Source: Candidatus Brocadia sp.
GTDB lineage: Bacteria > Planctomycetota > Brocadiia > Brocadiales > Brocadiaceae
Direction of reading: 5' to 3'
DNA length: 32,000 bases
Assembly: GCA_013360945.1 (NCBI GenBank)
Contig: JABWAQ010000004.1
Location: 2,891-34,890, forward strand
Of this stretch, positions 3,035 through 27,190 are shown one piece after another (the stretch's first letter is position 1; each line of letters begins with the position of its first letter). Under the pieces are notes generated by a model. It worked only from the letters and a program-made list of their open reading frames with translations, was not told the origin of the DNA and searched no databases. The translations under genes and the position numbers were made by a program.

Positions 3035-3095
3035 AATGCAATAAAAAATAATGTTGTGATATCGTAAAATATCAAAGTCTGTTTTGGGGATGTCT

Positions 3096-3890
3096 ATGGC
3101 TAATTATCATGTTTCTAAACATTCGAAATTCATCCAGCAGATGCGCAAAAAGCACAATCTGACGCAGGAGTATCTGGCGTCAAAGATTGGCGTTTCCCGG
3201 CCTACTTATATCCAGATAGAGCAGGGCGAGAGGGATTTAACTGTTTCCGCAGCGAAAATACTTGCAGATATTTTTGGCATTTCTTTTGAAGATTTTTTAG
3301 CCGCTAAAGAGACAAGGCATGAGGTTGTTTTAGAAAAGGTGGGAGCACACAAAAAGGCAGATTCCGGTCTTCAGATCCGGGTAACGCAAAAGAATCTTGA
3401 TAAATTCAAGCAGGTGTTGCTTTATATTCTGGAAAAAGTCGGCAGCAAACCAAATGTCGGCGAAACGGTACTCCACAAACTCCTTTACTTTATTGATTTT
3501 GATTATTATGAGAAGTTTGAAGAAAATTTAGTGGGGGCGACCTACATTAAAAATCATCACGGACCGACATCGGTTGAGTTGGGGACGATTTTAAAAGATA
3601 TGCAGAAAAACGGCGAGATTGAAGCGGTAAAAAGCAAATATTTTAACCATTTGCAGAAAAAATATCTACCGGTCAAGCGAGCCGATCTTAATGCCCTTTC
3701 GGCGCGGGAAATTGGCCATATTGAAGAAGTCCTGGCTCGTCTTTCTGATAAAAATGCCAAAGAAATAGAAAATTACTCTCATGAAGATATTCCGTGGAAA
3801 ACGGCAAAGGAAGGTCAGCCAATTTCTTATGAAAGCGTGTTCTATCGGGACGAACGTTATTCAGTAAGAAACTATGACGATGAACTTTAA
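3096..3890 (+). CDS. HTH (XRE-family) + Panacea/SocA-like (DUF4065) domain antitoxin
   Basis: N-terminus LTQEYLASKIGVSRPTYIQIEQGERDLTVSAAKILADIFGISFEDF is a Cro/C1-type HTH. The C-terminal half, LHKLLYFIDFDYYEKFEENLVGATYIKNHHGPTSVEL, matches the DUF4065 pattern as I remember it. I placed the start at ATG 3096 because GGGGA lies 5 nt upstream; the track starts at TTG 3084. Confidence 0.8.
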   Translation: MANYHVSKHSKFIQQMRKKHNLTQEYLASKIGVSRPTYIQIEQGERDLTVSAAKILADIFGISFEDFLAAKETRHEVVLEKVGAHKKADSGLQIRVTQKNLDKFKQVLLYILEKVGSKPNVGETVLHKLLYFIDFDYYEKFEENLVGATYIKNHHGPTSVELGTILKDMQKNGEIEAVKSKYFNHLQKKYLPVKRADLNALSAREIGHIEEVLARLSDKNAKEIENYSHEDIPWKTAKEGQPISYESVFYRDERYSVRNYDDEL

Positions 3891-4212
3891 TGAACTGCCG
3901 GAATTTGCCAAAGAATTTAAGCGGCTGATCAAAAAATACAAATCATTGTCGGATGACCTGGAAGAGTTTAAACGCGTAATCACCGTTGAGCCTTTGGGTA
4001 ACAGTAAACATTTTAATATCCTAACAAAGAATGACCGGTGCGCTGTCGTAAAGGCACGTCTGTTTTGCCGCTATCTAAAGGGTTCTTCTCTGCGGATTAT
4101 TTACGCTTTCCACTGCAATGATTTGAAGGTTGACTTTATCGAGATATATTTTAAGGGCGACAAGGAAAATGAAAACTGTGAAAGGTTTAAAGCATATCTA
4201 ATCAATTTCTAA
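3874..4212 (+). CDS. RelE/ParE-superfamily (Gp49/HigB-like) toxin
   Basis: About 110 aa, overlapping the antitoxin stop by 17 nt (11 nt if ATG 3880 is used). It shows ELPEFAKEFKRL..., ...KARLFCRYLKGSSLRIIYAF...VDFIEIYFKGDKENEN, the typical RelE-fold C-terminal beta strands and K.D tail. Confidence 0.7.
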   Translation: MTMNFNELPEFAKEFKRLIKKYKSLSDDLEEFKRVITVEPLGNSKHFNILTKNDRCAVVKARLFCRYLKGSSLRIIYAFHCNDLKVDFIEIYFKGDKENENCERFKAYLINF

Positions 4213-4722: not shown

Positions 4723-5563
4723 ATGAAAGACCAAGAATTAAAAAAGGGTGAAATAGTTATTTACAAGACCAGGGATGGGCCTAAATTAGATGTTCGACTT
4801 GAGGAGGATACGGTATGGCTGCCGCAAAAGCAGATGGCTATGCTTTTTGATAAAGGCATACCAACTATTAATGAACACATACAAAACATCTATAAAGAAG
4901 GTGAATTAAAGCAAAACTCAACTATTCGGAAATTCCGAATAGTTCGATCAGAAGGCGGTAGAACAGTAAAAAGAGATATAGATTTTTATAATCTTGATGT
5001 GATAATATCGGTTGGCTATCGTGTAAAATCTCAAAGAGGTACACAATTTAGAATGTGGGCAACAAAAACACTTAAAGACCATCTGATTAAGGGCTACACC
5101 ATTAATGAAAAGAGATTACTGAGTACGCAGGAAAAATTAAAAGAAATGCGGGAAGTCATATCATTTTTGCAGGAAAAATCTAAACATGAACTACTTGCGG
5201 GACAAGAAATTTTAAGTTTGCTTGCCAGCTACTCAAAAACTCTCACACTGTTAGAACAGTATGACAAGGAAAATCTTTCTCTTATCAAAAAAGCAAAAGG
5301 CAAATTTGTTTTGCGATACGATGAAGTGAAAGAAGTAATTGATAAGGTTAGGAAAGATCTCTCCGTTTGTTGACGGTAATAAACGAATCGGTTCCTTCTT
5401 GTTTGTCTATTTTTTAGATAAGAATAGTTATCTCCATAAAAATATCGGGGAAAAGAAAATCAATGACAATGCTTTAACCGCCCTGGCTCTTTTGATAGCA
5501 GTAAGCAACCCAAAAGAAAAGGATAAACTGATAAAAATCATTACAAATCTGTTATCTGTATAA
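4723..5563 (+). pseudogene. RhuM-family / Fic-Doc fusion gene disrupted by internal deletion plus frameshift
   Basis: Frame 1 (4723-5373) encodes a RhuM-type N-terminal domain (IVIYKTRDG..., IISVGYRVKSQRGTQFRMWATKTLKDHLIKGY) and stops at ...VRKDLSVC*. Frame 2 continues as SPFVDGNKRIGSFLFVYFL...LLIAVSNPKEK to TAA 5561-5563. That is the Fic/Doc motif HxFx(D/E)GNKR with the His missing and the roughly 50 aa that normally precede it absent. Confidence 0.75.
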
Positions 5564-5611: not shown

Positions 5612-5670
5612 CTTGTGCCAAGAGGCAGAAAAGCGCATTGAGCGGATTATTGCAGAGGTGTGGGGAGAGG
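5612..5670 (+). repeat. copy 2 of the diverged duplicated coding remnant (peptide LCQEAEKRIERIIAEVWGEE)
   Basis: See 4641-4699. Several differences are synonymous or conservative in the shared frame (gct/gca, gaa/gag, R/K, K/R, S/A). The frame is closed upstream by TGA at 5607-5609. Confidence 0.6.
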
Positions 5671-5719
5671 AAATGGAAAAACAAGCAGTAAAGAATCAAA
5701 TTCACAGAAGGGGGACATT

Positions 5720-6004
5720 GTGATCATCCAGGAAATAGAGGATAAAGTAGTCTCCATATTAACAAAGTACAATGTCAAGACAATAGGCATCTTCGGCTCT
5801 TATGCCAGAGGTGTTCAAAGACCAGACAGCGATCTGGATGTCCTGGTGAATTTCAAGGAGAGAAAGGGCCTGCTTACCCTGGTGAGAATAGAACGGGAGC
5901 TGTCTGAGACCATTGGAGTGAAGGTTGATCTTCTCACAGAACAGTCCATAAGCCCATATCTGATCGACAGGATAAAATCGGAAATGAAGGTGATATATCA
6001 ATGA
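5720..6004 (+). CDS. MNT-type nucleotidyltransferase (antitoxin of HEPN/MNT module)
   Basis: Shows GIFGSYARG...DSDLDVLV (GS-x-n-DxD polymerase-beta NTase signature). I placed the start at GTG 5720, with AGGGGG 5 nt upstream; the track's upstream GTG 5660 would read through the repeat remnant. The stop overlaps the next ATG (ATGA at 6001-6004). Confidence 0.8.
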   Translation: MIIQEIEDKVVSILTKYNVKTIGIFGSYARGVQRPDSDLDVLVNFKERKGLLTLVRIERELSETIGVKVDLLTEQSISPYLIDRIKSEMKVIYQ

Positions 6005-6672
6005 TAAAGGACGACACCGTATTTTTGCGGCACATACTGGATGCAATCAATAAGATTCAGGAATATGCAAAAGGTATGGATTATGAGGGTTTCGGGGCAT
6101 CCAGTCTCGTGCAGGACGGTGTGATTCGACAATTGGAGATTATTGGAGAAGCCACAAAGAACCTTTCGCAGGAAATTCGGGAAAAGCATCCGCATATCCC
6201 GTGGAAAGACATTGCAGGAATGAGAGACAAGCTGCCGAACCTGTACCGGATTATTCATTTGCTGACCGGAGAAATTTCTGCCGGTGCGCAAAAGTCAGGC
6301 AAGCGGGTTTCATTAAAAGGGATATGGAAAGGCAGCTACATCGACGAGTCATTGTTTACGGAGGTCAGGAAGTCGCTTTTCCCATACGAGAAAGGCAGAA
6401 TTACACTTTCTTTTGAAGAAACGTTAACACGGATTGAAGAGAGCGAAAACTTTGAAGCCGCACCATTAAATATCGAGGTATTAAAAATTGCTGATAAAAT
6501 TGATGCCGACCTTGAAATGCACGACAGACTCATAGTTACAACCGCCTTGCATTATGATGCGGCACTGATTACGAAAGATAAAAATATCGCTTTTTCGGGC
6601 ATTCTTTCGACTATTTGGCAAGGAAGTCATTGCAATGAAAACCTCTTGGCAACAACGGATGCCTTTCGATAG
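6001..6672 (+). CDS. chimeric ORF: DUF86/HEPN (HepT-like) N-terminal ~80 aa fused in frame to an antitoxin-tail-like segment and the C-terminal half of a PIN domain; probably degenerate
   Basis: aa 1-78, RHILDAINKIQEY...QDGVIRQLEIIGEATKNL...HPHIPWKDIAGMRDKL, is DUF86. The expected R-N-K-L-I-H-E-Y reads R-D-K-L-P-N-L-Y, so the His is lost. Then follow ...SGKRVSLKGIWKGSYIDESLFTEVRKSLFPYE and ...EMHDRLIVTTALHYDAALITKDKNI (PIN C-terminal motif). Confidence 0.6.
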   Translation: MIKDDTVFLRHILDAINKIQEYAKGMDYEGFGASSLVQDGVIRQLEIIGEATKNLSQEIREKHPHIPWKDIAGMRDKLPNLYRIIHLLTGEISAGAQKSGKRVSLKGIWKGSYIDESLFTEVRKSLFPYEKGRITLSFEETLTRIEESENFEAAPLNIEVLKIADKIDADLEMHDRLIVTTALHYDAALITKDKNIAFSGILSTIWQGSHCNENLLATTDAFR

Positions 6673-6681
6673 GTGTTTACA

Positions 6682-6954
6682 ATGGATACCTGGTTTTTGT
6701 ATGTGATAAGATGCAAACATGGGAATTTATATACAGGCATTACCACGAACGTGGAAAGACGACTTGCAGAACATACCGGTAACCATAACAAAGGGGCAAA
6801 ATATTTACGGGGAAAGACTCCTCTGACACTGGCAATGAAAAAGAAGATGAAAAGCAAGAGTATGGCGTTACAGATTGAAGCAAAGGTAAAAAAACTACCA
6901 AAAATGAAAAAAGAGCTGTTCGTGGAGGGTAAGATTAAAGTAAAAGAACTATAA
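6682..6954 (+). CDS. GIY-YIG nuclease superfamily protein (UPF0213/YhbQ-like)
   Basis: Shows WFLYVIRCKHGNLYTGITTNVERRLAEHTGNHNKGAKYLRGK. ATG 6682 is preferred over the track's GTG 6673 because AGGTG lies 6 nt upstream. Confidence 0.85.
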   Translation: MDTWFLYVIRCKHGNLYTGITTNVERRLAEHTGNHNKGAKYLRGKTPLTLAMKKKMKSKSMALQIEAKVKKLPKMKKELFVEGKIKVKEL

Positions 6955-7171
6955 AAGAGAATATCGATTAATAAACAAGGAATAATAAATGTTGAAGGAT
7001 AATAAAGTTTCACAATTCAAGATTACTTGTTCGATAGTATCTGACCCGAACTTAATCAAATAAAAGATGATATAGCATTGCGAGTGACGATGAGGCATTG
7101 AAACGATATTGGAGTTCATAAAGAGTATTGATAAACTTTACCGACTCGTTCGGGCTAGGTAGATTTGAAAA

Positions 7172-10100
7172 ATGAATTCCATCGCTTTTATTGATACGGA
7201 GATTGAGCCAAAAAGCCGAAGAATCCTTGACATTGGCGGCATTAATGATCACGGAAATTCTTTTCATTCAAACTCGGTTTCAGGTTTCATTGCCTTTTTG
7301 AAGGACACAAAATTCATTTGCGGTCACAATATTATCAACCACGATTTGAAATATATTCAAAAAGCTATCTGTGAAGCTGGAATAAGTCAGTCAAATATCA
7401 TTGACACATTGTTTCTCTCTCCGCTACTTTTTCCCGCCAGACCGTATCATGCCTTATCGAAAGATGATAAACTGCAAACAGAAGATACAAATAACCCACT
7501 CAATGATTCAATAAAAGCAAAAGACCTTTTCTTTGATGAAGTTTCGGCATTTAATCAGAAAGACGAATCTCTAAAACAAATTCTTTATTTGCTATTGTAT
7601 GGCAAAAAGGAGTTTTGCGCTTTTTTTAACTTCATCGCATACAAGAGCAGCGATTCAATGCTTGAACCTCTTATTCAGGAAAAATTTCACACTGAAATTT
7701 GCAATCAGGCAAAACTAAATGAAATTATTGCACAACACCCGGTTGACTTGGCGTATTGTTTGGCATTAATAGAATGCCGGAACCGATATTCAATTACACC
7801 GCCCTGGGTTCTCAAAAGTTTTCCTGATGTTGAACGGATAATGTTTTTGCTCAGGAACAAACCCTGCGTAAGCGGTTGCGTTTATTGCGACCAGGCACTG
7901 GACATACATAAAGGACTTAAAAGATATTTTGGCTTTGAATCCTTTAGAACGTACGTCCGTCAGCCATTACAGGAGAACGCAGTAAAAGCAGCCGTCGACA
8001 ACAAATCCATTCTGGCTGTCTTCCCTACCGGTGGCGGTAAGTCAATAACATTTCAAGTGCCGGCATTGATGAGTGGAGAGAACACAAAAGGGTTGACCGT
8101 AGTAATTTCTCCTTTGCAGTCATTGATGAAAGACCAGGTGGATAACCTGGAAAAGGTTGGAATCACGGATGCGGTAACGATAAATGGTCTGCTCGACCCG
8201 ATTGAAAGAGGAAAATCCTTTGAAAGAGTTGAAGATGGCTCCGCATCCATTCTTTACATATCGCCCGAATCTTTGCGATCAAAAACCATTGAACGGCTTT
8301 TATTGGGGCGAAATATTGTCCGTTTCGTAATTGATGAAGCACACTGTTTTTCATCGTGGGGACAGGATTTCAGGGTTGATTACTTATACATTGGAGATTT
8401 TATCAAATCGCTTCAGGAGAAAAAAAGGTTTGAAGATGTAATCCCTGTTTCTTGTTTTACTGCAACTGCAAAACGAAAAGTTATTGAGGATATCTGTTCT
8501 TATTTTAAAGAAAAATTATCCATCAATTTGGAAATTTTCAGGGCAAGCGCATCAAGGGCAAACCTACACTACAAAGTATTTCAGAAGGGCAACGAAGAAG
8601 AAAAATACAGTGCTACCAGAGACCTTCTGGAACAAAAAAATTGTCCGTCTATTATTTATGTTTCCAGAACACGAAGGGCATATGAACTTGCGAAAAGATT
8701 AAATGAAGATGGTTTTAGCGCTAAACCTTATCACGGCAAAATGGATGTAAAGGAAAAAACAGAAAACCAAAATGCCTTCATATCGGGTGAAATTCAAATA
8801 ATGGTTGCGACATCCGCTTTTGGAATGGGGGTGGATAAAAAAGATGTTGGAATGGTTATTCATTACGATATTTCCGATTCATTAGAGAACTACATTCAGG
8901 AGGCGGGAAGGGCAGGCAGAGATGAAAATATTACTGCCGATTGTTTTATATTATTCAACGAGGAAGACCTTGTCAAACACTTCATCTTGCTCAATCAAAC
9001 AAAACTTAGCATTAAGGAGATTCAGCAGATTTGGAAAGCGATTAAAGACATTACAAGATTTCGTTCAACGGTATCCACTTCTGCATTGGAAATTGCACGA
9101 AAAGCGGGTTGGGATGATAATATTGCAGAAATAGAAACGCGAGTCAAAACGGCAATTGCTGCGCTTGAAGTTGCCGGCTATTTGAAACGGGGGCAAAACA
9201 TGCCGAGGATTTTTGCTAATAGCATTTTGTCTAAGAATGCTCAGGATGCTATTGACAAAATAAAGCAATCATCAAGGTTTGATGAAAAGCAAAAGGTAAA
9301 TGCTGTAAGAATTATTAAAAAATTATTTTCAAGCAAGAATAGAAAACACTCAAATGATGAAGTCGCTGAATCAAGGGTTGACTATATTTCCGACCATCTT
9401 GGAATAGTAAAAGAGGATGTCATACATGTTATCAGTTTGCTCCGTGAAGAAAAAATATTGGCAGATACAAAAGACTTAACTGCCTTTATAAAAAAAGGGG
9501 AGAACAAAAACCGATCTCTGACTATTGCAGAAACATTCAGCCAGATAGAAATATTTCTTCTGTCGATTTTCGAAGAACAGGAAAAAATATTTCATCTGAA
9601 GGAATTGAATGAGCTGGTTGAGGAGAACGGCTGCAAAAAAGCTTCCCCAAACAATATTAAGACTATAATCAATTTTTGGGCAATTAAAAATTGGATTAAA
9701 CGGCAAAACATGGAATATTCCAATAATCATATTTTGGTTGTTTGTATTCAACCAAAAGAGGTATTAGAAAAGAAAATGGAAAAGAGACATGAGTTGGCAA
9801 TATTTATTGTTGACTATCTCTATGGAAAGATAAACGCTAACATCGATAAAGACGGACCCAAAAAAGAAGAAGTATTAGTAGAGTTTTCGGTATATGAACT
9901 TAAAGAAGCATTCGAAAAAGAGCGTAAATTATTTAAAGTGGAAATTACTATCGAAGATATTGAGGACACTCTTTTCTATTTGTCAAGAATTGATGCGATC
10001 AAAATTGAAGGTGGATTTTTAGTGATATATAATCGGCTTACTATTGACAGAATTGAGCAGAATAATAGATATCATTACAAGAATGATGATTACCAAAAAC

Positions 10101-11977
10101 TACATCAATTTTATGAAAACAAGATACAACAAATCCACATTGTTGGTGAGTATGCCATGAAAATGATTGAAGATTACAAAGGTGCTTTGCAGTTTGTTGA
10201 TGATTATTTCCAGTTAAACTACATGTCTTTTTTAAATAAGTATTTTCCGGGAAGCCGCCAGGATGAAATCAAACGAAATATAACCCCTGCCAAATTCCGT
10301 CAATTGTTTGGTTCATTGTCACCAACGCAATTAGAAATTATTAAGGATAATCAATCTAAACATATTGTTGTTGCGGCTGGACCCGGAAGTGGCAAGACAA
10401 GGGTACTGGTTCACAAATTAGCCTCCCTGCTTTTGATGGAAGATGTAAAGCATGAGCAATTATTAATGGTGACTTTTTCAAGGGCGGCGGCAACAGAATT
10501 TAAAAGGAGATTACTCCAACTCATTGGCAATGCCGCCAACTACATTGAAATAAAAACTTTTCATTCTTACTGTTTTGACTTGTTAGGCAAAGTTGGAAGT
10601 CTGGAGAAGTCAGATGCAATTCTACGGAGCACTATTGAAAAAATTAATAACGGCGAAGTCGAAGCGAACCGAATTACAAAAACGGTACTTGTAATTGATG
10701 AGGCGCAGGACATGGACGCTGACGAATATGCCTTAATAAACGCACTTATGGAACAAAACGAAGATATGAGAGTAATTGCCGTTGGTGATGACGACCAAAA
10801 CATTTACGCTTTCAGAGGTGCGGATTCAAAATATTTAGAGCAGTTTATTACAGAAAAAAAGGCTACAAAATATGAACTCATAGAAAACTACAGGAGCAAA
10901 GGCAATTTGGTTGAATTCACAAATCAATTTGTGAAGAAGATTCACCACCGGTTAAAAACCATCCCAATTTCTGCTAAACAGCAGGACAAAGGAAACATAA
11001 AGATGGTGCGTTACACCAGCAATAATCTCATTACTCCTCTGGTGGAGGATATTCTCTCAACAGAACTTGCAGGAACTACTTGTGTGTTGACAAAAACCAA
11101 TGAGGAAGCGCTACAGGTAACAGGACTACTACTCAAAAATAGATTGCAGGCAAAGTTGATTCAAAGTAACGACGGATTTAGTTTGTATAATCTTTTGGAA
11201 GTACGGTTCTTTCTGAACAAATTAAAGCCGGAAGACGATGTGTTCATAATCAGCGACGAAATCTGGGATAATGCAAAAAGGGAATTCCTAAAAAGGTTTC
11301 AACGGAGCTTAAGAATGGAAGTGTGCGAAAATATCATTAAAAAATTTGAAGCTGCCAATCCAAAGAAAAAACACAAATCCGATTTAGAGGTATTTATCAG
11401 GGAATCCAAACTCGAAGACTTTTTCAGTGAAAATGGTGAAACAATTTTTGTTTCAACAATACATAAAGCAAAAGGAAAAGAGTTTGACAATGTGTATTTA
11501 TTACTTGATAATTTTAATCAGCAAACCGATGATGTGAAGCGACAGTTGTATGTTGCAATGACAAGGGCCAAACAAAACCTGACGATTCATTTAAACGGTA
11601 ATTATCTTGACAATATTGTAACAGATAATTTAGCGAGAGCAGAAGATGGAAAAGCCTATCTGCCGCCAAACCAGATGGCAATGCACTTAACATTCAAAGA
11701 CGTTTGGTTAGATTATTTTATTAACAGACAACACATTATCGAGGAATTTATAAGCGGTGACGTGCTAACAATAGATACGGATGGATGTGCTAATGCCAAA
11801 GGGGAATCAGTACTAAAATATTCTAAACAGTTTCTTGCTACAATAGCTTCTGTACGGCAAGAAGGCTATCAATTAAAAGGGGTGAAAGTAAACTTCGTTA
11901 TTTATTGGAAAAGACCTGCTGAAAAAATTGAATGGAAAATTATTTTACCGGAATTGTATTTTGAAAGACAGCAATAA
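7172..11977 (+). CDS. 1601-aa fusion protein: DEDDh 3'-5' exonuclease + RecQ-family helicase core + UvrD/Rep-family helicase
   Basis: Exonuclease: FIDTE (aa 6-10), GHNIINHD (51-58), HALSKD (93-98). RecQ: PTGGGKS (285-291), VIDEAHC with DEAH (388-391), WGQDFR, ATSAFGMGVDKKDV, QEAGRAGRD. UvrD: AAGPGSGKT (GPGSGKT at 1070-1076), VIDEAQD (DEAQD 1176-1180), VGDDDQNIYAFRGA, NYRS, TIHKAKGKEFD, YVAMTRAK. One uninterrupted frame. Confidence 0.9.
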   Translation: MNSIAFIDTEIEPKSRRILDIGGINDHGNSFHSNSVSGFIAFLKDTKFICGHNIINHDLKYIQKAICEAGISQSNIIDTLFLSPLLFPARPYHALSKDDKLQTEDTNNPLNDSIKAKDLFFDEVSAFNQKDESLKQILYLLLYGKKEFCAFFNFIAYKSSDSMLEPLIQEKFHTEICNQAKLNEIIAQHPVDLAYCLALIECRNRYSITPPWVLKSFPDVERIMFLLRNKPCVSGCVYCDQALDIHKGLKRYFGFESFRTYVRQPLQENAVKAAVDNKSILAVFPTGGGKSITFQVPALMSGENTKGLTVVISPLQSLMKDQVDNLEKVGITDAVTINGLLDPIERGKSFERVEDGSASILYISPESLRSKTIERLLLGRNIVRFVIDEAHCFSSWGQDFRVDYLYIGDFIKSLQEKKRFEDVIPVSCFTATAKRKVIEDICSYFKEKLSINLEIFRASASRANLHYKVFQKGNEEEKYSATRDLLEQKNCPSIIYVSRTRRAYELAKRLNEDGFSAKPYHGKMDVKEKTENQNAFISGEIQIMVATSAFGMGVDKKDVGMVIHYDISDSLENYIQEAGRAGRDENITADCFILFNEEDLVKHFILLNQTKLSIKEIQQIWKAIKDITRFRSTVSTSALEIARKAGWDDNIAEIETRVKTAIAALEVAGYLKRGQNMPRIFANSILSKNAQDAIDKIKQSSRFDEKQKVNAVRIIKKLFSSKNRKHSNDEVAESRVDYISDHLGIVKEDVIHVISLLREEKILADTKDLTAFIKKGENKNRSLTIAETFSQIEIFLLSIFEEQEKIFHLKELNELVEENGCKKASPNNIKTIINFWAIKNWIKRQNMEYSNNHILVVCIQPKEVLEKKMEKRHELAIFIVDYLYGKINANIDKDGPKKEEVLVEFSVYELKEAFEKERKLFKVEITIEDIEDTLFYLSRIDAIKIEGGFLVIYNRLTIDRIEQNNRYHYKNDDYQKLHQFYENKIQQIHIVGEYAMKMIEDYKGALQFVDDYFQLNYMSFLNKYFPGSRQDEIKRNITPAKFRQLFGSLSPTQLEIIKDNQSKHIVVAAGPGSGKTRVLVHKLASLLLMEDVKHEQLLMVTFSRAAATEFKRRLLQLIGNAANYIEIKTFHSYCFDLLGKVGSLEKSDAILRSTIEKINNGEVEANRITKTVLVIDEAQDMDADEYALINALMEQNEDMRVIAVGDDDQNIYAFRGADSKYLEQFITEKKATKYELIENYRSKGNLVEFTNQFVKKIHHRLKTIPISAKQQDKGNIKMVRYTSNNLITPLVEDILSTELAGTTCVLTKTNEEALQVTGLLLKNRLQAKLIQSNDGFSLYNLLEVRFFLNKLKPEDDVFIISDEIWDNAKREFLKRFQRSLRMEVCENIIKKFEAANPKKKHKSDLEVFIRESKLEDFFSENGETIFVSTIHKAKGKEFDNVYLLLDNFNQQTDDVKRQLYVAMTRAKQNLTIHLNGNYLDNIVTDNLARAEDGKAYLPPNQMAMHLTFKDVWLDYFINRQHIIEEFISGDVLTIDTDGCANAKGESVLKYSKQFLATIASVRQEGYQLKGVKVNFVIYWKRPAEKIEWKIILPELYFERQQ

Positions 11978-12021
11978 TTTTGGAAGAATATTTGTGCATT
12001 TTAAACATGGAAATAAATATT

Positions 12022-13800
12022 ATGAACAAGGCCAGAGATCAAATAGAAGAGAAATACAAATGGGATTTGTCTGTTGTATATGCATCAAATAATGCCTGGG
12101 AAGAAGATTTTCTCAGGGTGGAAAAGGGACTCTCGCAGATCCTGGAGTTCAAAGGTTCGCTTGGTGATGCCTGTAAGCTTGAGCAGTTCCTACAGGTTTA
12201 CATTGACCATTCCGTAACCAAAGAAAATTTATACGTGTATGCCCATGTGCGATTTTTTGAGGATACCCGGAACGCCACATACGAAGAGATGAAAGGTCGT
12301 ATCGAACTCCTCGTTTCAAAGATTTCTGCTGAAACCGTGTTCATAAAGAAAGAGTTGTCCTCTTTATCGGAGGACGACATCAACGACATGATCCATGAAA
12401 ATGCTCGGTTGGCAGGGTATCGCTTCTTTCTGCAAAGCTATGCCCGATATAATCCTCATATCCTTTCTGAAGAAACGGAAACGGTCTTAGCGGAACTGGA
12501 AATTGCCCTAAAAAAACCCGATGATGTTTTTTCAGCCTTTCATAATAACAATATTTCATTCGGGGAATTTGAACATAAGGGAGAAAAGATCCGCCTCTCC
12601 CACGCAAGATACGCCCAACTCCTGGAAGTACCCGACCGGGCCCTCCGGCAAAAGGCATTTGAACACTATTACCGGCCTTACCGGCAGCACATTGACGTGC
12701 TGGCAAATACCTATGCAGCGAACGTCCTTGCAAACATTAAGCTGGCAAAGATTCGCAACTATGTCTCTATGCTGGAAATGTCTCTGTTTCCGGATTACGT
12801 GCCAACTACGGTGTTCAGTAATCTCATTGAGGTTGCAAAGGAGAATATTGATTTGATTAGTGAGTTCAATGCCCTGAAGCAGGAAGGACTTGGAATTGAA
12901 GAATTACACTTCTATGATAATTATGTCCCCCTGGTTCGTGAGGTTGACAAGAAATATTCCTATGAAGAGGCAATTGATCTGGTGCGTACGGTGCTTGAAC
13001 CCCTCGGTGCAGCATATCTCAGGAAGTTCGACTCTACGGTTAGCGCACGGGTAATTGATGTATTTGAATCTCCCGGCAAAAGAGCGGGGGCATTCTCCTG
13101 GGGGAGTTATGCGAGCCGGGGATTGATTTTCTTAAATTACACGGAAAAATTCTCTGATGTCTCAACATTTGCGCATGAATTCGGCCATTGCCTGCACCGG
13201 GATTACTCCATTGAAAATCGCCCCTATATCTATTATCAAAATCCCATCTTTCTGGCTGAGATAGCCTCGACGTTCAACGAAGTCTTACTTTCTGATCACA
13301 TGTCAAAGATCGCCGAATCAATTGAGGAGAAGAAGTTCTTTCTGTATCACTCCATGAAACGGATCGAGGCAACCTTCTACCGGCAGACCATGTTCGCAAA
13401 TTTTGAAAAGGAGATTCATGAGATGGCAGAATCCGGCAAGGTCTTAATAGCGAAAAGCATCACCGACGTCTACCGGAAGAATCTTGAAACTTTTCTGGGC
13501 AAGGGAATGGTTATTGATGAGCAGTTAAACTACGAGTGGGCGCGGATTCCTCATTTTTACAATGCCTTTTATGTCTACAAGTATGCTACCAGTCTGTCTG
13601 CAGCAATTGCCCTGGCTGAGTGTGTAATTTCCGGAGAAAAAGGCGCCGTCGAAGGCTATCTTACTTTTTTGAAGGCAGGATCACATAAAGAGCCGCTTGA
13701 AATCCTGAAAGACGCCGGGGTCGACCTTACCGGCAAAGGGGCGTATGAAGTGACGGTTCACAAATTCAGGAAATTGCTGAAAGAATACAAAGCATTATAG
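12022..13800 (+). CDS. pepF: oligoendopeptidase F (M3B family zinc metallopeptidase)
   Basis: Shows HEFGHCLH (HExxH) and N-terminal EEKYKWDL, with a length of about 590 aa. Start taken at ATG 12022 (ATG 12007 is also possible); the track's TTG 11980 is probably an over-extension. Confidence 0.88.
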   Translation: MNKARDQIEEKYKWDLSVVYASNNAWEEDFLRVEKGLSQILEFKGSLGDACKLEQFLQVYIDHSVTKENLYVYAHVRFFEDTRNATYEEMKGRIELLVSKISAETVFIKKELSSLSEDDINDMIHENARLAGYRFFLQSYARYNPHILSEETETVLAELEIALKKPDDVFSAFHNNNISFGEFEHKGEKIRLSHARYAQLLEVPDRALRQKAFEHYYRPYRQHIDVLANTYAANVLANIKLAKIRNYVSMLEMSLFPDYVPTTVFSNLIEVAKENIDLISEFNALKQEGLGIEELHFYDNYVPLVREVDKKYSYEEAIDLVRTVLEPLGAAYLRKFDSTVSARVIDVFESPGKRAGAFSWGSYASRGLIFLNYTEKFSDVSTFAHEFGHCLHRDYSIENRPYIYYQNPIFLAEIASTFNEVLLSDHMSKIAESIEEKKFFLYHSMKRIEATFYRQTMFANFEKEIHEMAESGKVLIAKSITDVYRKNLETFLGKGMVIDEQLNYEWARIPHFYNAFYVYKYATSLSAAIALAECVISGEKGAVEGYLTFLKAGSHKEPLEILKDAGVDLTGKGAYEVTVHKFRKLLKEYKAL

Positions 13801-14127: not shown

Positions 14128-15489
14128 TTAGCAAATTGTTGTGTCATGTTCGTCCTGGATTTCCATAAGCATCCTGGCGCTTTTATCGAGTGGGGTAAGC
14201 TCCCCGATTTCCTTTTTGCTTCCAGCACCAAGCACTTCAAACTTTCGCACAGATGGAAGCACACGTCCTTCGAAGGATGCAACAGCGGAGTTGAATGCTT
14301 CCACGGCCTTCCCAAGAGAACCACCGAGCTTCGTTAAGTGTTCGACCATAGTGGCAATGCGCTCGTGAAGTTCCTGCCCAAGTTCACTAATCTTCCTGGT
14401 ATTCTCAGACATCTGCTCCTGCCGCCAGCCATAGTACACGGCACGCAGGAGCGCAATCAGGGTTGTCGGTGTTGCCAGGATGACCTGCTGTTTAGCGCCC
14501 TCCTCAATCAGTGCGGGATCCAGCTCGAGTGCTGCGCCGAAAAATGCCTCACCTGGCAGAAAAAGGACGACAAATTCCGGCGAAGGTTGAAATTGTTCCC
14601 AATAGGATTTTGCGCTCAGTTTTATCATATGAGACCGAATCTGCTGTGCATGCTCCTTGAGTTTCGATAAACGATCGTCATCGTTTGCAGATTCTAAGGC
14701 ATCAAGATACGCCTGAAGGGGTGTCTTCGCGTCAACAACAATATTTTTACCACCGGGCATCCGCACAAGCAAATCAGGCCGCAAACGGCCATCTTCCGTA
14801 GCTACCGTTTGTTGCCGGTGAAAATCGCAGTATTCCAGCATGCCGGCAATCTCAACTACCCGCTTGAGTTGTATTTCTCCCCAGTGACCGCGCACCGCCG
14901 GTGTCCGAAGGGCCCTGACCAGATTGCCGGTCTCGGACTGTAACTTCTCCTGTGTGTAAATGAGCGACTTGACCTGTTCGGTCAGGCTTCCATACGCCTG
15001 CTGACGTGCTTTTTCTAATTCCTGAATCCGGGTATCCACCTTCTCCAGTGACTGCTTGATGGGTGCGACGAGATGTTCTACGGCCTTCTGCCTCTGCTCA
15101 AGGTCTCCCTTTGCCTCGGTTTGATATTTTTCCAGGGTAATTTTTGCCAGCTCCAGGAAGGATTGGTTGTTGCTTTTCAGCGCTTCTGATGAAAGTGCCT
15201 TAAAGGCATCGCCCAGCTTCAGGGTGGCATCGTTAAGAATATTCAGTTTTTCATAAGCCGCCTTACGCTCGTGTTCGAGTGTGGTCTCCAGCCGCACAAT
15301 CAACTGATTATGCTGAGAAATCGTTTCGTTCTTCAGATCAAGATCGGCCCGTGCGTGTGCCAGATCCTGTTGTATGGTGATACATCGTTCGTTGAGCGTT
15401 GCGATGCGTGCCTTACAGAGCAGCCAGGTGATGGCAGTTCCTGCGAAAACCCCGGTAACTATTGCAATGATTAACCAATGAATTTCCAT
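14128..15489 (-). CDS. rmuC: DNA recombination protein RmuC
   Basis: N-terminal TM helix (WLIIAIVTGVFAGTAITWLL), a long coiled coil, and a C-terminal RmuC-type region (VVDAKTPLQAY, EFVVLFLPGEAFF). Confidence 0.88.
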   Translation of the reverse strand: MEIHWLIIAIVTGVFAGTAITWLLCKARIATLNERCITIQQDLAHARADLDLKNETISQHNQLIVRLETTLEHERKAAYEKLNILNDATLKLGDAFKALSSEALKSNNQSFLELAKITLEKYQTEAKGDLEQRQKAVEHLVAPIKQSLEKVDTRIQELEKARQQAYGSLTEQVKSLIYTQEKLQSETGNLVRALRTPAVRGHWGEIQLKRVVEIAGMLEYCDFHRQQTVATEDGRLRPDLLVRMPGGKNIVVDAKTPLQAYLDALESANDDDRLSKLKEHAQQIRSHMIKLSAKSYWEQFQPSPEFVVLFLPGEAFFGAALELDPALIEEGAKQQVILATPTTLIALLRAVYYGWRQEQMSENTRKISELGQELHERIATMVEHLTKLGGSLGKAVEAFNSAVASFEGRVLPSVRKFEVLGAGSKKEIGELTPLDKSARMLMEIQDEHDTTIC

Positions 15490-26098: not shown

Positions 26099-27190
26099 TT
26101 ATTTTTCACCCTTTTTAGAAACGGATTCTGTCTTCGTTTTTTCGGAAGCCTTCTCCGGGGTTTTTTCTGAGGCCATTTCCGGTTTGATCTTTTTCAGGAT
26201 AGATTGCTCAAGTTCCCTCATTAATTCCGGTTTCCCCTCGATGAACTGCCTGGAATTTTCCCTTCCCTGCCCCAGTCGGATTTCGCCATAAGAAAACCAG
26301 GTGCCGGACTTATCAATGATTTGGTGTTCGACCCCAAGGTCAATGATGTCGCCTCCACGCGATATGCCCGTGTTATACAGGATATCAAACTCCGCCTTCT
26401 TAAAAGGCGCTGCAACCTTATTTTTGGCAATGGTCGCACGGACCCGGTTTCCAATAGTCACTTCACCGTCTTTTATGCTGCCAATCCTCCGGATATCGAT
26501 GCGCACCGAGGCATAGAATTTGAGCGCCCTGCCACCCGGGGTTGTTTCCGGATTTCCTCCATACATTACCCCGATCTTTTCACGAATCTGGTTGATAAAA
26601 ATCACACTGGTCTGGGATTTTGAAATGCAACCCGTTAACTTGCGCAGGGCCTGCGACATCAATCTGGCTTGCAATCCTACATGCGCATCGCCCATTTCGC
26701 CCTCAATCTCTGCGCGAGGAACCAGCGCTGCCACGGAATCGATCGCAATGATATCTACGGCATTGCTCCTTACCAGCAGTTCTGCAATCTCGAGCGCCTG
26801 TTCTCCGGTATCGGGCTGGTTGACCATGAGATTATTTAAATCTACCCCTAATTTTTTAGCATAGTCAGGGTCAAGGGCGTGTTCCGCATCAATAAAGGCT
26901 GCCATACCACCCGCTTTTTGGGCGTTAGCGATAATATGAAGAGTCAACGTGGTTTTACCCGAAGATTCCGGGCCAAATATCTCGATGACTCTTCCGCGGG
27001 GGATGCCCCCTACGCCAAGCGCAAGATCCAGGGACAATGCCCCGGTCGGGATGGTAGGAACGTCTACCTTCGTCTCGCCGCCCAGCTTCATGATCGTTCC
27101 TTTCCCGTACTGTTTCTCGATCTGCGAGATCGCCCTTTCCAGGGCTTGCTGCCGCTTTTCCTTATCTGCCTCCTCTGGTTTGAATACCAT
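26099..27190 (-). CDS. recA: recombinase RecA
   Basis: GPESSGKTT (Walker A), [31 protein letters not shown]. Confidence 0.97.

Follow-up and report, generated by a model that had tools for sequence, protein, structure and literature searches.

WRN combines in one chain an N-terminal 3'-5' exonuclease of the DnaQ fold, a RecQ-type helicase core and a winged helix, and the same order of domains is predicted for the subject of this analysis, a protein of 1601 amino acids (aa) encoded by a single open reading frame (ORF) in a 32,000-nt stretch of Candidatus Brocadia sp. DNA (contig JABWAQ010000004.1; the whole stretch is called the window below). WRN has no second motor, whereas the Brocadia protein adds a UvrD-type core of helicase superfamily 1 (SF1), three more predicted winged-helix modules and an orphan C-terminal domain; WRN also possesses a zinc-binding RQC region and an HRDC domain, whereas the hairpin found here is free of cysteines and no match to Pfam RecQ_Zn_bind, RQC or HRDC was obtained at E<=0.01. 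The DinG proteins of Gram-positive bacteria (S. aureus, B. subtilis) likewise carry a DEDD exonuclease N-terminal to an ATPase of superfamily 2 (SF2) and gave the best structural match to our protein, at a sequence identity of only 16–17%. However, DinG is driven by an XPD-like motor that contains an iron-sulphur cluster, while the motor described here is RecQ-like; a UvrD module is absent from DinG, which is encoded by a chromosomal repair gene, unlike the accessory gene reported here. Two helicase-type motors and a nuclease are also united in the RecBCD, AddAB and AdnAB machines, which act on phage DNA as well, but these are multi-subunit enzymes that use SF1A and SF1B motors of opposite polarity or contain one dead motor, and their nucleases belong to the PD-(D/E)xK type, while the present protein combines SF2 and SF1A motors, both from 3'->5' families, with a nuclease predicted to be of the DEDD type (the matches to RecB and AddA models in NCBIfam were partial and weak). 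Among WRN, DinG and RecBCD/AddAB, none joins motors of both SF2 and SF1 to a DEDD exonuclease.

Relatives of both motors occur in described defence systems. The UvrD-type core, in which every SF1A motif is present, matches the PADLOC model of GajB from the Gabija system (150 bits, over three stretches), but GajB partners the adjacent OLD-family ATPase-TOPRIM nuclease GajA, while the nuclease here would be a DnaQ-fold domain of the same chain; none of the further window proteins that were scanned matches GajA, and the loci have no recurrent partner. The RecQ-type core obtained its best PADLOC scores with the models of DpdF, from the Dpd 7-deazaguanine DNA-modification/restriction system (331 bits in PADLOC; NCBIfam NF041063, 207.8 versus a cut-off of 550), of whose dpd cluster genes none occurs in the window, and of the RecQ-like toxin PsyrT/RqlH (277 bits, profile positions 10–378 of 689 only). 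Nhi, Hna and Hhe, in each of which a single large polypeptide from a defence island unites helicase and nuclease, follow a similar general logic, but have one motor and other nuclease folds, and no model so named is among the best 25 of the 65 PADLOC families matched. These best 25 are all partial matches, to the RecQ or the UvrD core, and no model in PADLOC-DB v2.0.0 spans the whole protein; in the literature, at incomplete coverage, no description of the exonuclease-RecQ-UvrD architecture was found. Both results agree with a prediction made earlier from the sequence of the window alone (hereafter the original prediction), according to which no characterised defence or repair system is known to be built in this way. 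ARMADA II was considered and ruled out as an unrelated multi-gene system of the YprA/DISARM type.

The reading frame opens with ATG and continues through 1601 codons with no internal stop, just as had been predicted, and its product is identical to one protein from a metagenome-assembled genome (MAG) of Candidatus Brocadia sp. An assembly or fusion artefact was rejected, because the same architecture of ~1600 aa is shared by 100 among the 150 top-ranking cluster representatives, at identities as low as 33%, and is present on complete chromosomes. These representatives come from a phmmer search with aa 1–1200 as the query against 1.84 billion cluster representatives (50% identity clusters), in which the 100 matches are 1500–1900 aa long and the listed matches of this length align from about residue 1 through 1200. 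The motifs of both helicases are conserved to 90% or more among 100 divergent full-length relatives. Thus, the triple fusion is a stable architecture of a protein family (Table 1). Of the three catalytic motif sets announced by the original prediction, those of RecQ and UvrD were recovered intact and the exonuclease fold is supported by a structural model; every motif residue it had named (K290/S291, D388-E-A-H391, K1075/T1076) was found in its place, while the assignment of the third exonuclease motif did not survive, as detailed below.

Table 1. Positions of the helicase gene, its predicted domains and neighbouring genes (window coordinates, except where a locus number beginning with L is given)
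Feature	Position (strand)	Basis or remark
Whole ORF, 1601 aa	7172..11977 (+)	Exonuclease (predicted), Cys4 connector, RecQ core, four winged-helix modules (predicted), UvrD core, C-terminal domain
aa 1-130, compact DnaQ-like 3'-5' exonuclease fold (predicted)	7172..7561 (+)	Model, Foldseek, conservation
aa 131-245, helical connector with Cys cluster	7562..7906 (+)	Conservation; helical in model
aa 246-625, RecQ-type SF2 helicase core	7907..9046 (+)	Pfam, NCBIfam, motif conservation, model
aa 633-960, four tandem winged-helix-like modules (predicted)	9068..10051 (+)	Model, weak fold and weak profile matches
aa 971-1045, conserved helical segment before UvrD core	10082..10306 (+)	Y981, H989, Y1012-F1013, F1020
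aa 1046-1475, UvrD/Rep-type SF1A helicase core	10307..11596 (+)	Pfam, PADLOC, NCBIfam, conservation
aa 1476-1601, orphan C-terminal domain	11597..11974 (+)	Conservation in family alignment
Upstream intergenic region	6955..7171 (+)	Presumed own promoter of helicase gene; unconserved outside Brocadia
GIY-YIG protein, 93 aa, directly upstream	6673..6954 (+)	Neighbour in Brocadia only
HNH_2 genes overlapping helicase start	L015 341-1303; L028 9042-10004; L039 1538-2503; L053 803-1756; L072 9015-10004	
SMC/RecF-type, LmuB-like ATPase, 809 aa	354-2783 (+)	PADLOC LmuB 7e-23, also mad3, PDC-S06
HTH-SocA/Panacea antitoxin-like gene	3084-3890 (+)	Overlaps 112-aa ORF
112-aa ORF without family match	3874-4212 (+)	Overlaps SocA/Panacea gene
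RhuM-family protein	4723-5373 (+)	PADLOC candidates PDC-S23 E=2e-74, PDC-S05 E=2e-72
MntA of MntA/HepT toxin-antitoxin pair	5660-6004 (+)	Library scans
HepT, 223 aa, extra C-terminal PIN-like domain (aa 135-196, E=4.6e-5)	6001-6672 (+)	HepT-PIN fusion
pepF	11980-13800 (+)	Mechanical ORF from TTG, 2 nt past helicase stop

No exonuclease model was significant in the Pfam and NCBIfam scans of the protein: the sole match, to DNA_pol_B_exo1, was sub-threshold (E=0.006) and corresponds to the ExoII-like segment GHNIINHD, RNase_T of Pfam gave no match, and a phmmer search of the exonuclease region against the PDB sequences returned nothing. The AlphaFold model of aa 1–250, built from an alignment of 34 divergent relatives, was of high quality (predicted local distance difference test, pLDDT: 93.2; predicted template modelling score, pTM: 0.89) and exhibits a compact core in the order beta1-beta2-beta3-alphaA-beta4-alphaB-beta5, followed by helices. 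A Foldseek search of the PDB with this model confidently identified DnaQ-type exonucleases as all of the top matches (probability 1.0). The best was S. aureus DinG (8zef_A, E=9.9e-5; also 9ii8_A), and the others included the TREX1 homologue Plex9.1, the CRISPR-associated DnaQ domain from Streptococcus thermophilus, and the exonuclease domains of PolC, Pol II (PolB) and T7 polymerase. The N-terminal domain is thereby modelled as a DnaQ-like RNase H-type fold.

Conservation in this domain was scored over 100 full-length relatives with 33–72% identity, in which D8, E10, G51-H52-N53, D58, D78, H93, K97, P109 and D112 are invariant or near-invariant. The original prediction had assigned H93-x4-D98 as ExoIII, and this we reject: D98 is kept in only 68 of the 100 relatives (it is replaced by N, E, P or G elsewhere), whereas D112 is kept in all of them, and position 107, the site of the DEDDh histidine, is occupied by Asn in our protein and in 84 relatives and by Ser or Pro in the others. 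The fourth catalytic Asp is probably D112, judging from its conservation, its location in the first turn of the helix 109–129, which is the usual ExoIII site in the DnaQ fold, and the register of a weak local hhalign match between the family profile and E. coli DnaQ (E=0.059, with an approximate DnaQ sequence, so that this register is a lead only). The invariant H93 and K97 fall in the least confident loop of the model. Four acidic residues, D8 and E10 (D-x-E of ExoI), D58 (ExoII) and D112 (ExoIII), are thus invariant in these relatives, and the H-x4-D signature, with a His five residues ahead of the last Asp, is absent. Hence the domain is predicted to be an exonuclease of the DEDD type and the DnaQ fold, which is neither a canonical DEDDh nor a canonical DEDDy enzyme. 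A cluster of cysteines (C177, C232, C236, C239) located between the exonuclease and the RecQ core is ~90% conserved, being missing in ~10% of the family, and may bind zinc.

The first motor is recognized by Pfam (DEAD, aa 265–439; Helicase_C, aa 478–583) and belongs to the RecQ family according to NCBIfam (TIGR00614 recQ_fam, 282.9 bits versus a cut-off of 219.8), but it scores well below the cut-offs for bacterial RecQ orthologs (TIGR01389: 323.9 versus 640.2, NF008279: 241.7 versus 1015). The characteristic motifs are conserved in the 100 relatives, including motif 0 (F253..FR..Q267), PTGGGKS, DEAHC, the aromatic-rich loop SSWGQDFR and QEAGRAGR(D). The second motor spans aa 1047–1474, where Pfam detects UvrD-helicase (PF00580, 116.7 bits), UvrD_C (PF13361, 67.6 bits) and AAA_19; motif Q, AGPGSGKT, TFSRAAA, DEAQD, VGDDDQNIY, NYRS, TIHKAKGKEFD and YVAMTRAK are all conserved in the family. 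Here too, orthology to UvrD, PcrA, Rep or helicase IV is contradicted by the NCBIfam scores (71–122 bits versus cut-offs of 543–1168).

Between the two motors the original prediction had placed a non-catalytic linker of about 400 aa. Its length is right (~420 aa, aa 625–1045), while its content turned out to be more than filler. In the model of aa 596–1046 (pLDDT: 83.9, pTM: 0.55) the RecQ core is followed by a helical hairpin without cysteines, by four predicted repetitions of the winged-helix topology (approximately aa 633–682, 733–776, 805–858 and 900–960, each with the order strand-helix-helix-strand-strand) and by a conserved helical segment, and the first of these modules occupies the place of the RQC winged helix of RecQ. 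Foldseek gave only weak matches to this model (E>=0.011), nearly all of them, however, to winged-helix proteins (RPC62/C82, PadR, MarR, LmrR), and a profile search of the PDB sequences returned weak MarR/ArsR matches to the same region; phmmer found nothing useful for the linker in the PDB. RPC62/C82 also carry four extended winged helices. We therefore interpret the linker, on the strength of the model, as four tandem winged-helix-like modules. The C-terminal domain (126 aa) exhibits the near-invariant residues D1510, L1513, G1529, S1551, Y1566, W1579 and L1592, and no relative of it was detected by a profile search against the PDB sequences or by the Pfam scan. Since the exonuclease, the winged-helix array and the C-terminal domain all escape detection by Pfam, members of the family are labelled in RefSeq only as "RecQ family ATP-dependent DNA helicase".

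The family is large, widespread and uncharacterised, and it is unusually conserved for so mobile a gene. Full-length relatives at 75–87% identity were found in Brocadia, Kuenenia, Syntrophales and many Bacteroidota, and a scan of one genome per GTDB species revealed close relatives in at least 240 species genomes. Of these, the top 80 (67–87% identity) come mostly from Bacteroidota, with others from Brocadiaceae, Syntrophomonas, Bacillales, Lutispora, Pseudanabaena, Fibrobacteres, Chitinispirillaceae and delta-proteobacterial lineages; this close clade extends over about seven phyla, including Planctomycetota, Bacteroidota, Bacillota, Cyanobacteriota, Fibrobacterota and Desulfobacterota. Copies from Flavobacterium are 72–89% identical to each other, i.e. 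no closer than the Brocadia protein is to those of Flavobacterium. The GC content of the helicase gene is 33–40% in every host examined and that of the flanks varies from 34% to 56%; in the Syntrophales copy (locus L010, 1387–6186) the gene has 35.6% GC versus 55.7% in the flanks, and the same pattern is seen in loci L001, L005 and L008. In the window, the helicase gene has 36.8% GC, the island upstream of it 37.3%, pepF 44.2% and the core region at 14–32 kb 45.7%, and the particularly low value that the original prediction gave for positions 9301–9360 (23%) was reproduced (23.3%). Low GC of the gene in high-GC flanks indicates a recent arrival from a pool of low-GC donors, which is probably Bacteroidota. 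Nucleotide similarity across phyla runs from the start codon to the stop codon and not beyond, and because the conserved DNA stops exactly at the ORF borders, the ends of a mobile element are not visible: the flanks are not conserved across phyla, the window contains no tRNA, and meaningful repeats on either side were not found. The helicase gene belongs to the accessory genome and has spread horizontally.

More divergent full-length members were identified on 9 of 72,556 plasmid records (at least 80% query coverage), from Bacteroides, Phocaeicola, Aliarcobacter, Nostoc/Scytonema and Sulfitobacter (the annotation confirms that the Sulfitobacter copy is full-length), and matches with 76–79% query coverage on further proteobacterial plasmids, those of Paracoccus, Croceicoccus, Allochromatium and Thiothrix. 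On the Aliarcobacter cibarius plasmid pACIB (locus L094, 7001–11800) a full-length member of 36% identity adjoins parA/parB and is separated by ~4 kb from rep and dnaB-like genes of the plasmid, an odd placement for a defence gene. No full-length copy was found in 50,697 phage records and no close relative, with the patterns used, in 2.9 million viral contigs, and a phage origin was rejected on these grounds. Two copies are disrupted: that of Algoriphagus antarcticus (locus L035, 9926–14863) is split into two ORFs, and that of Nostoc punctiforme pNPUN02 (locus L091, 7773–12791) into three coding sequences, annotated as RecQ family, UvrD-helicase domain and "3'-5' exonuclease", which adjoin genes for an N6-methylase, a helicase and an ISNCY transposase.

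ORFs were called in 82 loci and the four neighbours on each side of the helicase gene were clustered. Within four genes of the helicase, a common neighbour is seen in only 87 of 3321 locus pairs (2 of 36 among the Flavobacterium pairs), and no conserved partner gene was found across the 82 loci. The original prediction had regarded a conserved core-genome position of the orthologues as an argument against a role in defence; no such position exists outside Brocadiaceae, while within this family the place upstream of pepF is kept. The largest neighbour family, present in 8 loci, comprises HNH_2 nucleases of 320–330 aa. In 5 of about 85 loci the HNH_2 gene, whose product has 317–329 aa and carries the HNH_2 domain at its C-terminus, is directly upstream and overlaps the helicase start by 4 nt (Table 1), an arrangement that looks like an optional two-gene version with translational coupling. 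A gene for a fusion of a class I methyltransferase with HIT overlaps the helicase start, also by 4 nt, in two loci (L041, 9144–9998; L066, 9129–10004), the second of which encodes in addition a NOV_C protein 29 nt downstream of the helicase. Hence the term "single-gene system", used in the original prediction, suits most loci, but not these two groups. Other genes that abut or overlap the helicase gene code for HNH, NOV_C, SWIM, AAA_21/AAA_15, YgjP and RecD2 proteins.

Individual loci contain further defence-type genes near the helicase: Vsr and an SLFN-type helicase in Ferruginibacter; a DNA methylase, an SNF2 protein with NOV_C and HEPN in a locus on a 5-Mb contig; an AAA_15/21 gene near the helicase on a Syntrophales contig; the N6-methylase and helicase already mentioned on the Nostoc plasmid; and two SocA/Panacea genes and a zeta-like toxin in Kuenenia. 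For a proxy test of association with PADLOC, two sets of 145 proteins were compared, one encoded within two genes of the helicase (48 loci) and the other at a distance of at least 6.5 kb (59 loci). The near set matched 223 families, versus 74 for the distal set, a threefold difference. Very strong restriction, PtuA and PDC matches were confined to the near set (type I restriction enzyme: 8e-303, type IV restriction enzyme: 1e-224, PDC-M01A: 2e-189, PtuA: 8e-182; E 1e-126 to 1e-303 for these together with several PDC candidates), which also contained PDC-S18, PDC-S13 and four HNH proteins, whereas the best E-value in the distal set was 3e-68. By this measure the helicase gene appears to be preferentially adjacent to defence genes, and the direction of this preference is clear. 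The enrichment named in the original prediction as a check is seen in the proxy count, while many loci have ordinary neighbours only.

What could be the function of such a protein? The architecture with its conserved motifs, the breadth of the family, the island context, the enrichment of PADLOC matches among the nearest genes, the coupled nuclease genes and the relationship of the helicase modules to DpdF, PsyrT and GajB, together with the accessory behaviour of the gene (disrupted copies, occurrence on plasmids, horizontal transfer), lead us to favour, with a confidence that we put at about even, a stand-alone, horizontally mobile nuclease-helicase of the conflict/defence type, i.e. a candidate single-protein defence effector. 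A more specific proposal, which in our estimate falls somewhat short of an even chance, is a new, widespread and self-contained immune effector, in which two motors and a four-fold winged-helix sensor of DNA structure would serve a non-canonical DEDD exonuclease that erases the 3' ends of replicating foreign DNA, and which would spread between phyla as a bare ORF without a partner. Under the favoured reading in general, the winged-helix array and the helicase cores would recognize structures of the invader DNA, such as 3' single-stranded tails, forks and rolling-circle or recombination intermediates, the RecQ-type and UvrD-type motors would unwind the recognized DNA, and the N-terminal exonuclease would strip the exposed 3' strand, so that the 3'-OH ends needed for replication and recombination of the phage or plasmid are lost. 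Motors of both the RecQ and the UvrD family travel 3'->5'. The conservation of both motif sets suggests that both ATPases work, and since motors that share a polarity cannot move inward together from a single DNA end, we speculate that they may act on two arms of a branched substrate, a fork or a bubble, or that one may gate the other. In the minority of loci that possess it, the coupled HNH_2 nuclease or methyltransferase-HIT protein would probably add cleavage or self-marking.

Several observations weigh against a role in defence. All three enzymatic modules are classic DNA-repair modules, the exonuclease domain lacks the canonical His or Tyr of the DEDDh/DEDDy enzymes and its activity is predicted only, and no mechanism for discrimination between self and non-self is visible. 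The close clade is unusually conserved for a gene engaged in an arms race (70–87% identity over 1600 aa), and within Brocadia the helicase matches pepF in conservation (87% versus 81%). Many loci have housekeeping neighbours only, e.g. in Flavobacterium piscis the gene lies between those for DJ-1 and ThuA, and the PADLOC enrichment is a proxy, based on crude ORF calls and a count of families instead of genes, with controls taken 6.5–10 kb away, possibly inside islands themselves. According to the main rival explanation, which we regard as rather unlikely, the protein could be a mobile accessory of DNA repair or of the response to replication stress, acting in the manner of WRN or DinG on stalled forks, R-loops and 3' flaps of the host chromosome and found in islands because it is dispensable. 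The WRN-like arrangement of exonuclease and RecQ core, the exonuclease-helicase-like fusion DinG of S. aureus as the best N-terminal structural match, the high conservation, the stable place upstream of pepF in three Brocadiaceae genomes and the many loci devoid of defence neighbours all agree with it. DinG of B. subtilis has been described as an exo(ribo)nuclease of 3'->5' polarity which alleviates replication stress (PMC12525004). A repair role is, however, difficult to reconcile with the patchy distribution, the lack of synteny and the cross-phylum transfer with GC mismatch, with the enrichment of restriction and defence genes among the neighbours and the HNH_2 nuclease coupled to the gene in some loci, and with scores far under the equivalog cut-offs of RecQ, UvrD, PcrA and Rep; moreover, a 3'->5' exonuclease would be expected to destroy the 3' tails required for recombinational repair.

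The occurrence on nine plasmid records raises the question of whether the gene could instead serve the mobile elements themselves, in replication or maintenance of plasmids and integrative and conjugative elements or in exclusion of competitors, its chromosomal copies being remnants of integrated elements. The pACIB copy, directly beside parA/parB and rep/dnaB genes, the copies on Nostoc pNPUN02 and on the Sulfitobacter plasmid, both beside insertion sequences, and Y1 transposases near some chromosomal copies are in line with such a role, but we consider it improbable: the plasmid records are few beside the genomes of at least 240 species, genes for integrases, relaxases or replication proteins do not recur within four genes on each side, the conserved DNA is confined to the ORF, with no element ends in sight, and the phage records and viral contigs searched contain no copy. 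Or perhaps the protein could be a toxin-like RecQ helicase in the manner of PsyrT/RqlH, held in check by a neighbouring antitoxin, with the island as its toxin-antitoxin context? The PsyrT score of the RecQ core and the toxin-antitoxin pairs around the gene in the window and in Kuenenia would fit, but the match is limited to the helicase core, no PsyrA-like gene was found among the other eight + strand ORFs scanned (seven island ORFs and pepF), and the loci share no recurrent partner, which makes this explanation very improbable.

If the favoured reading, a defence effector, is correct, the protein would extend the known single-protein systems by a nuclease-helicase with two motors (SF2 + SF1) and would provide a bacterial counterpart of the exonuclease and RecQ core of WRN, in which the interplay of helicase and 3'-5' exonuclease within one polypeptide is open to experiment; it would also raise the question of how the enzyme spares the DNA of its host when no methylase is present. 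If it acts in repair instead, it would represent an uncharacterised and broadly distributed genome-maintenance factor. Whatever its function, a 1600-aa protein with 70–87% identity across about seven phyla and a constantly low GC content is unusual.

In the window, in agreement with the original prediction, the helicase gene is the last of an island of toxin-antitoxin and ATPase genes, all on the + strand. The next gene on this strand is the housekeeping gene pepF. A promoter and terminator scan gave a result no better than shuffled sequence. In Brocadia sapporoensis the order GIY-YIG, helicase, pepF is kept and the remainder differs, while in a further MAG of Brocadiaceae a distance of 6 kb separates the helicase from pepF downstream. 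The position of pepF and the identities between the window and B. sapporoensis (helicase: 87%, pepF: 81%, GIY-YIG: 71%) make the inheritance within the Brocadiaceae lineage look vertical; the GIY-YIG neighbour is Brocadia-specific, since it was not found beside the helicase in other lineages. The real start of pepF is probably an ATG near 12022, ~45 nt after the helicase as in B. sapporoensis, because the orthologue from that genome aligns from "MNK". In Kuenenia, the SocA pair (L008, 10181–11288) is located ~0.6 kb downstream of the helicase and its members are 87% and 80% identical to the pair in the window; thus, the two anammox genera share island cargo.

For the LmuB-like ATPase at the beginning of the island no LmuA-like effector is visible, and since the window begins 353 nt upstream of it, a partner may be cut off. 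The HepT-PIN fusion brings together two RNase-type toxin domains in one chain. The housekeeping genes downstream comprise pepF and those for RmuC, GlmS, LpxD, FabF/D/H, PlsX, AlaS, RecA and GltX. One of them encodes the DNA recombination protein RmuC (14128–15489, - strand) and another, 12 kb further, RecA (26099–27190, - strand); their proximity to the island is probably coincidental.

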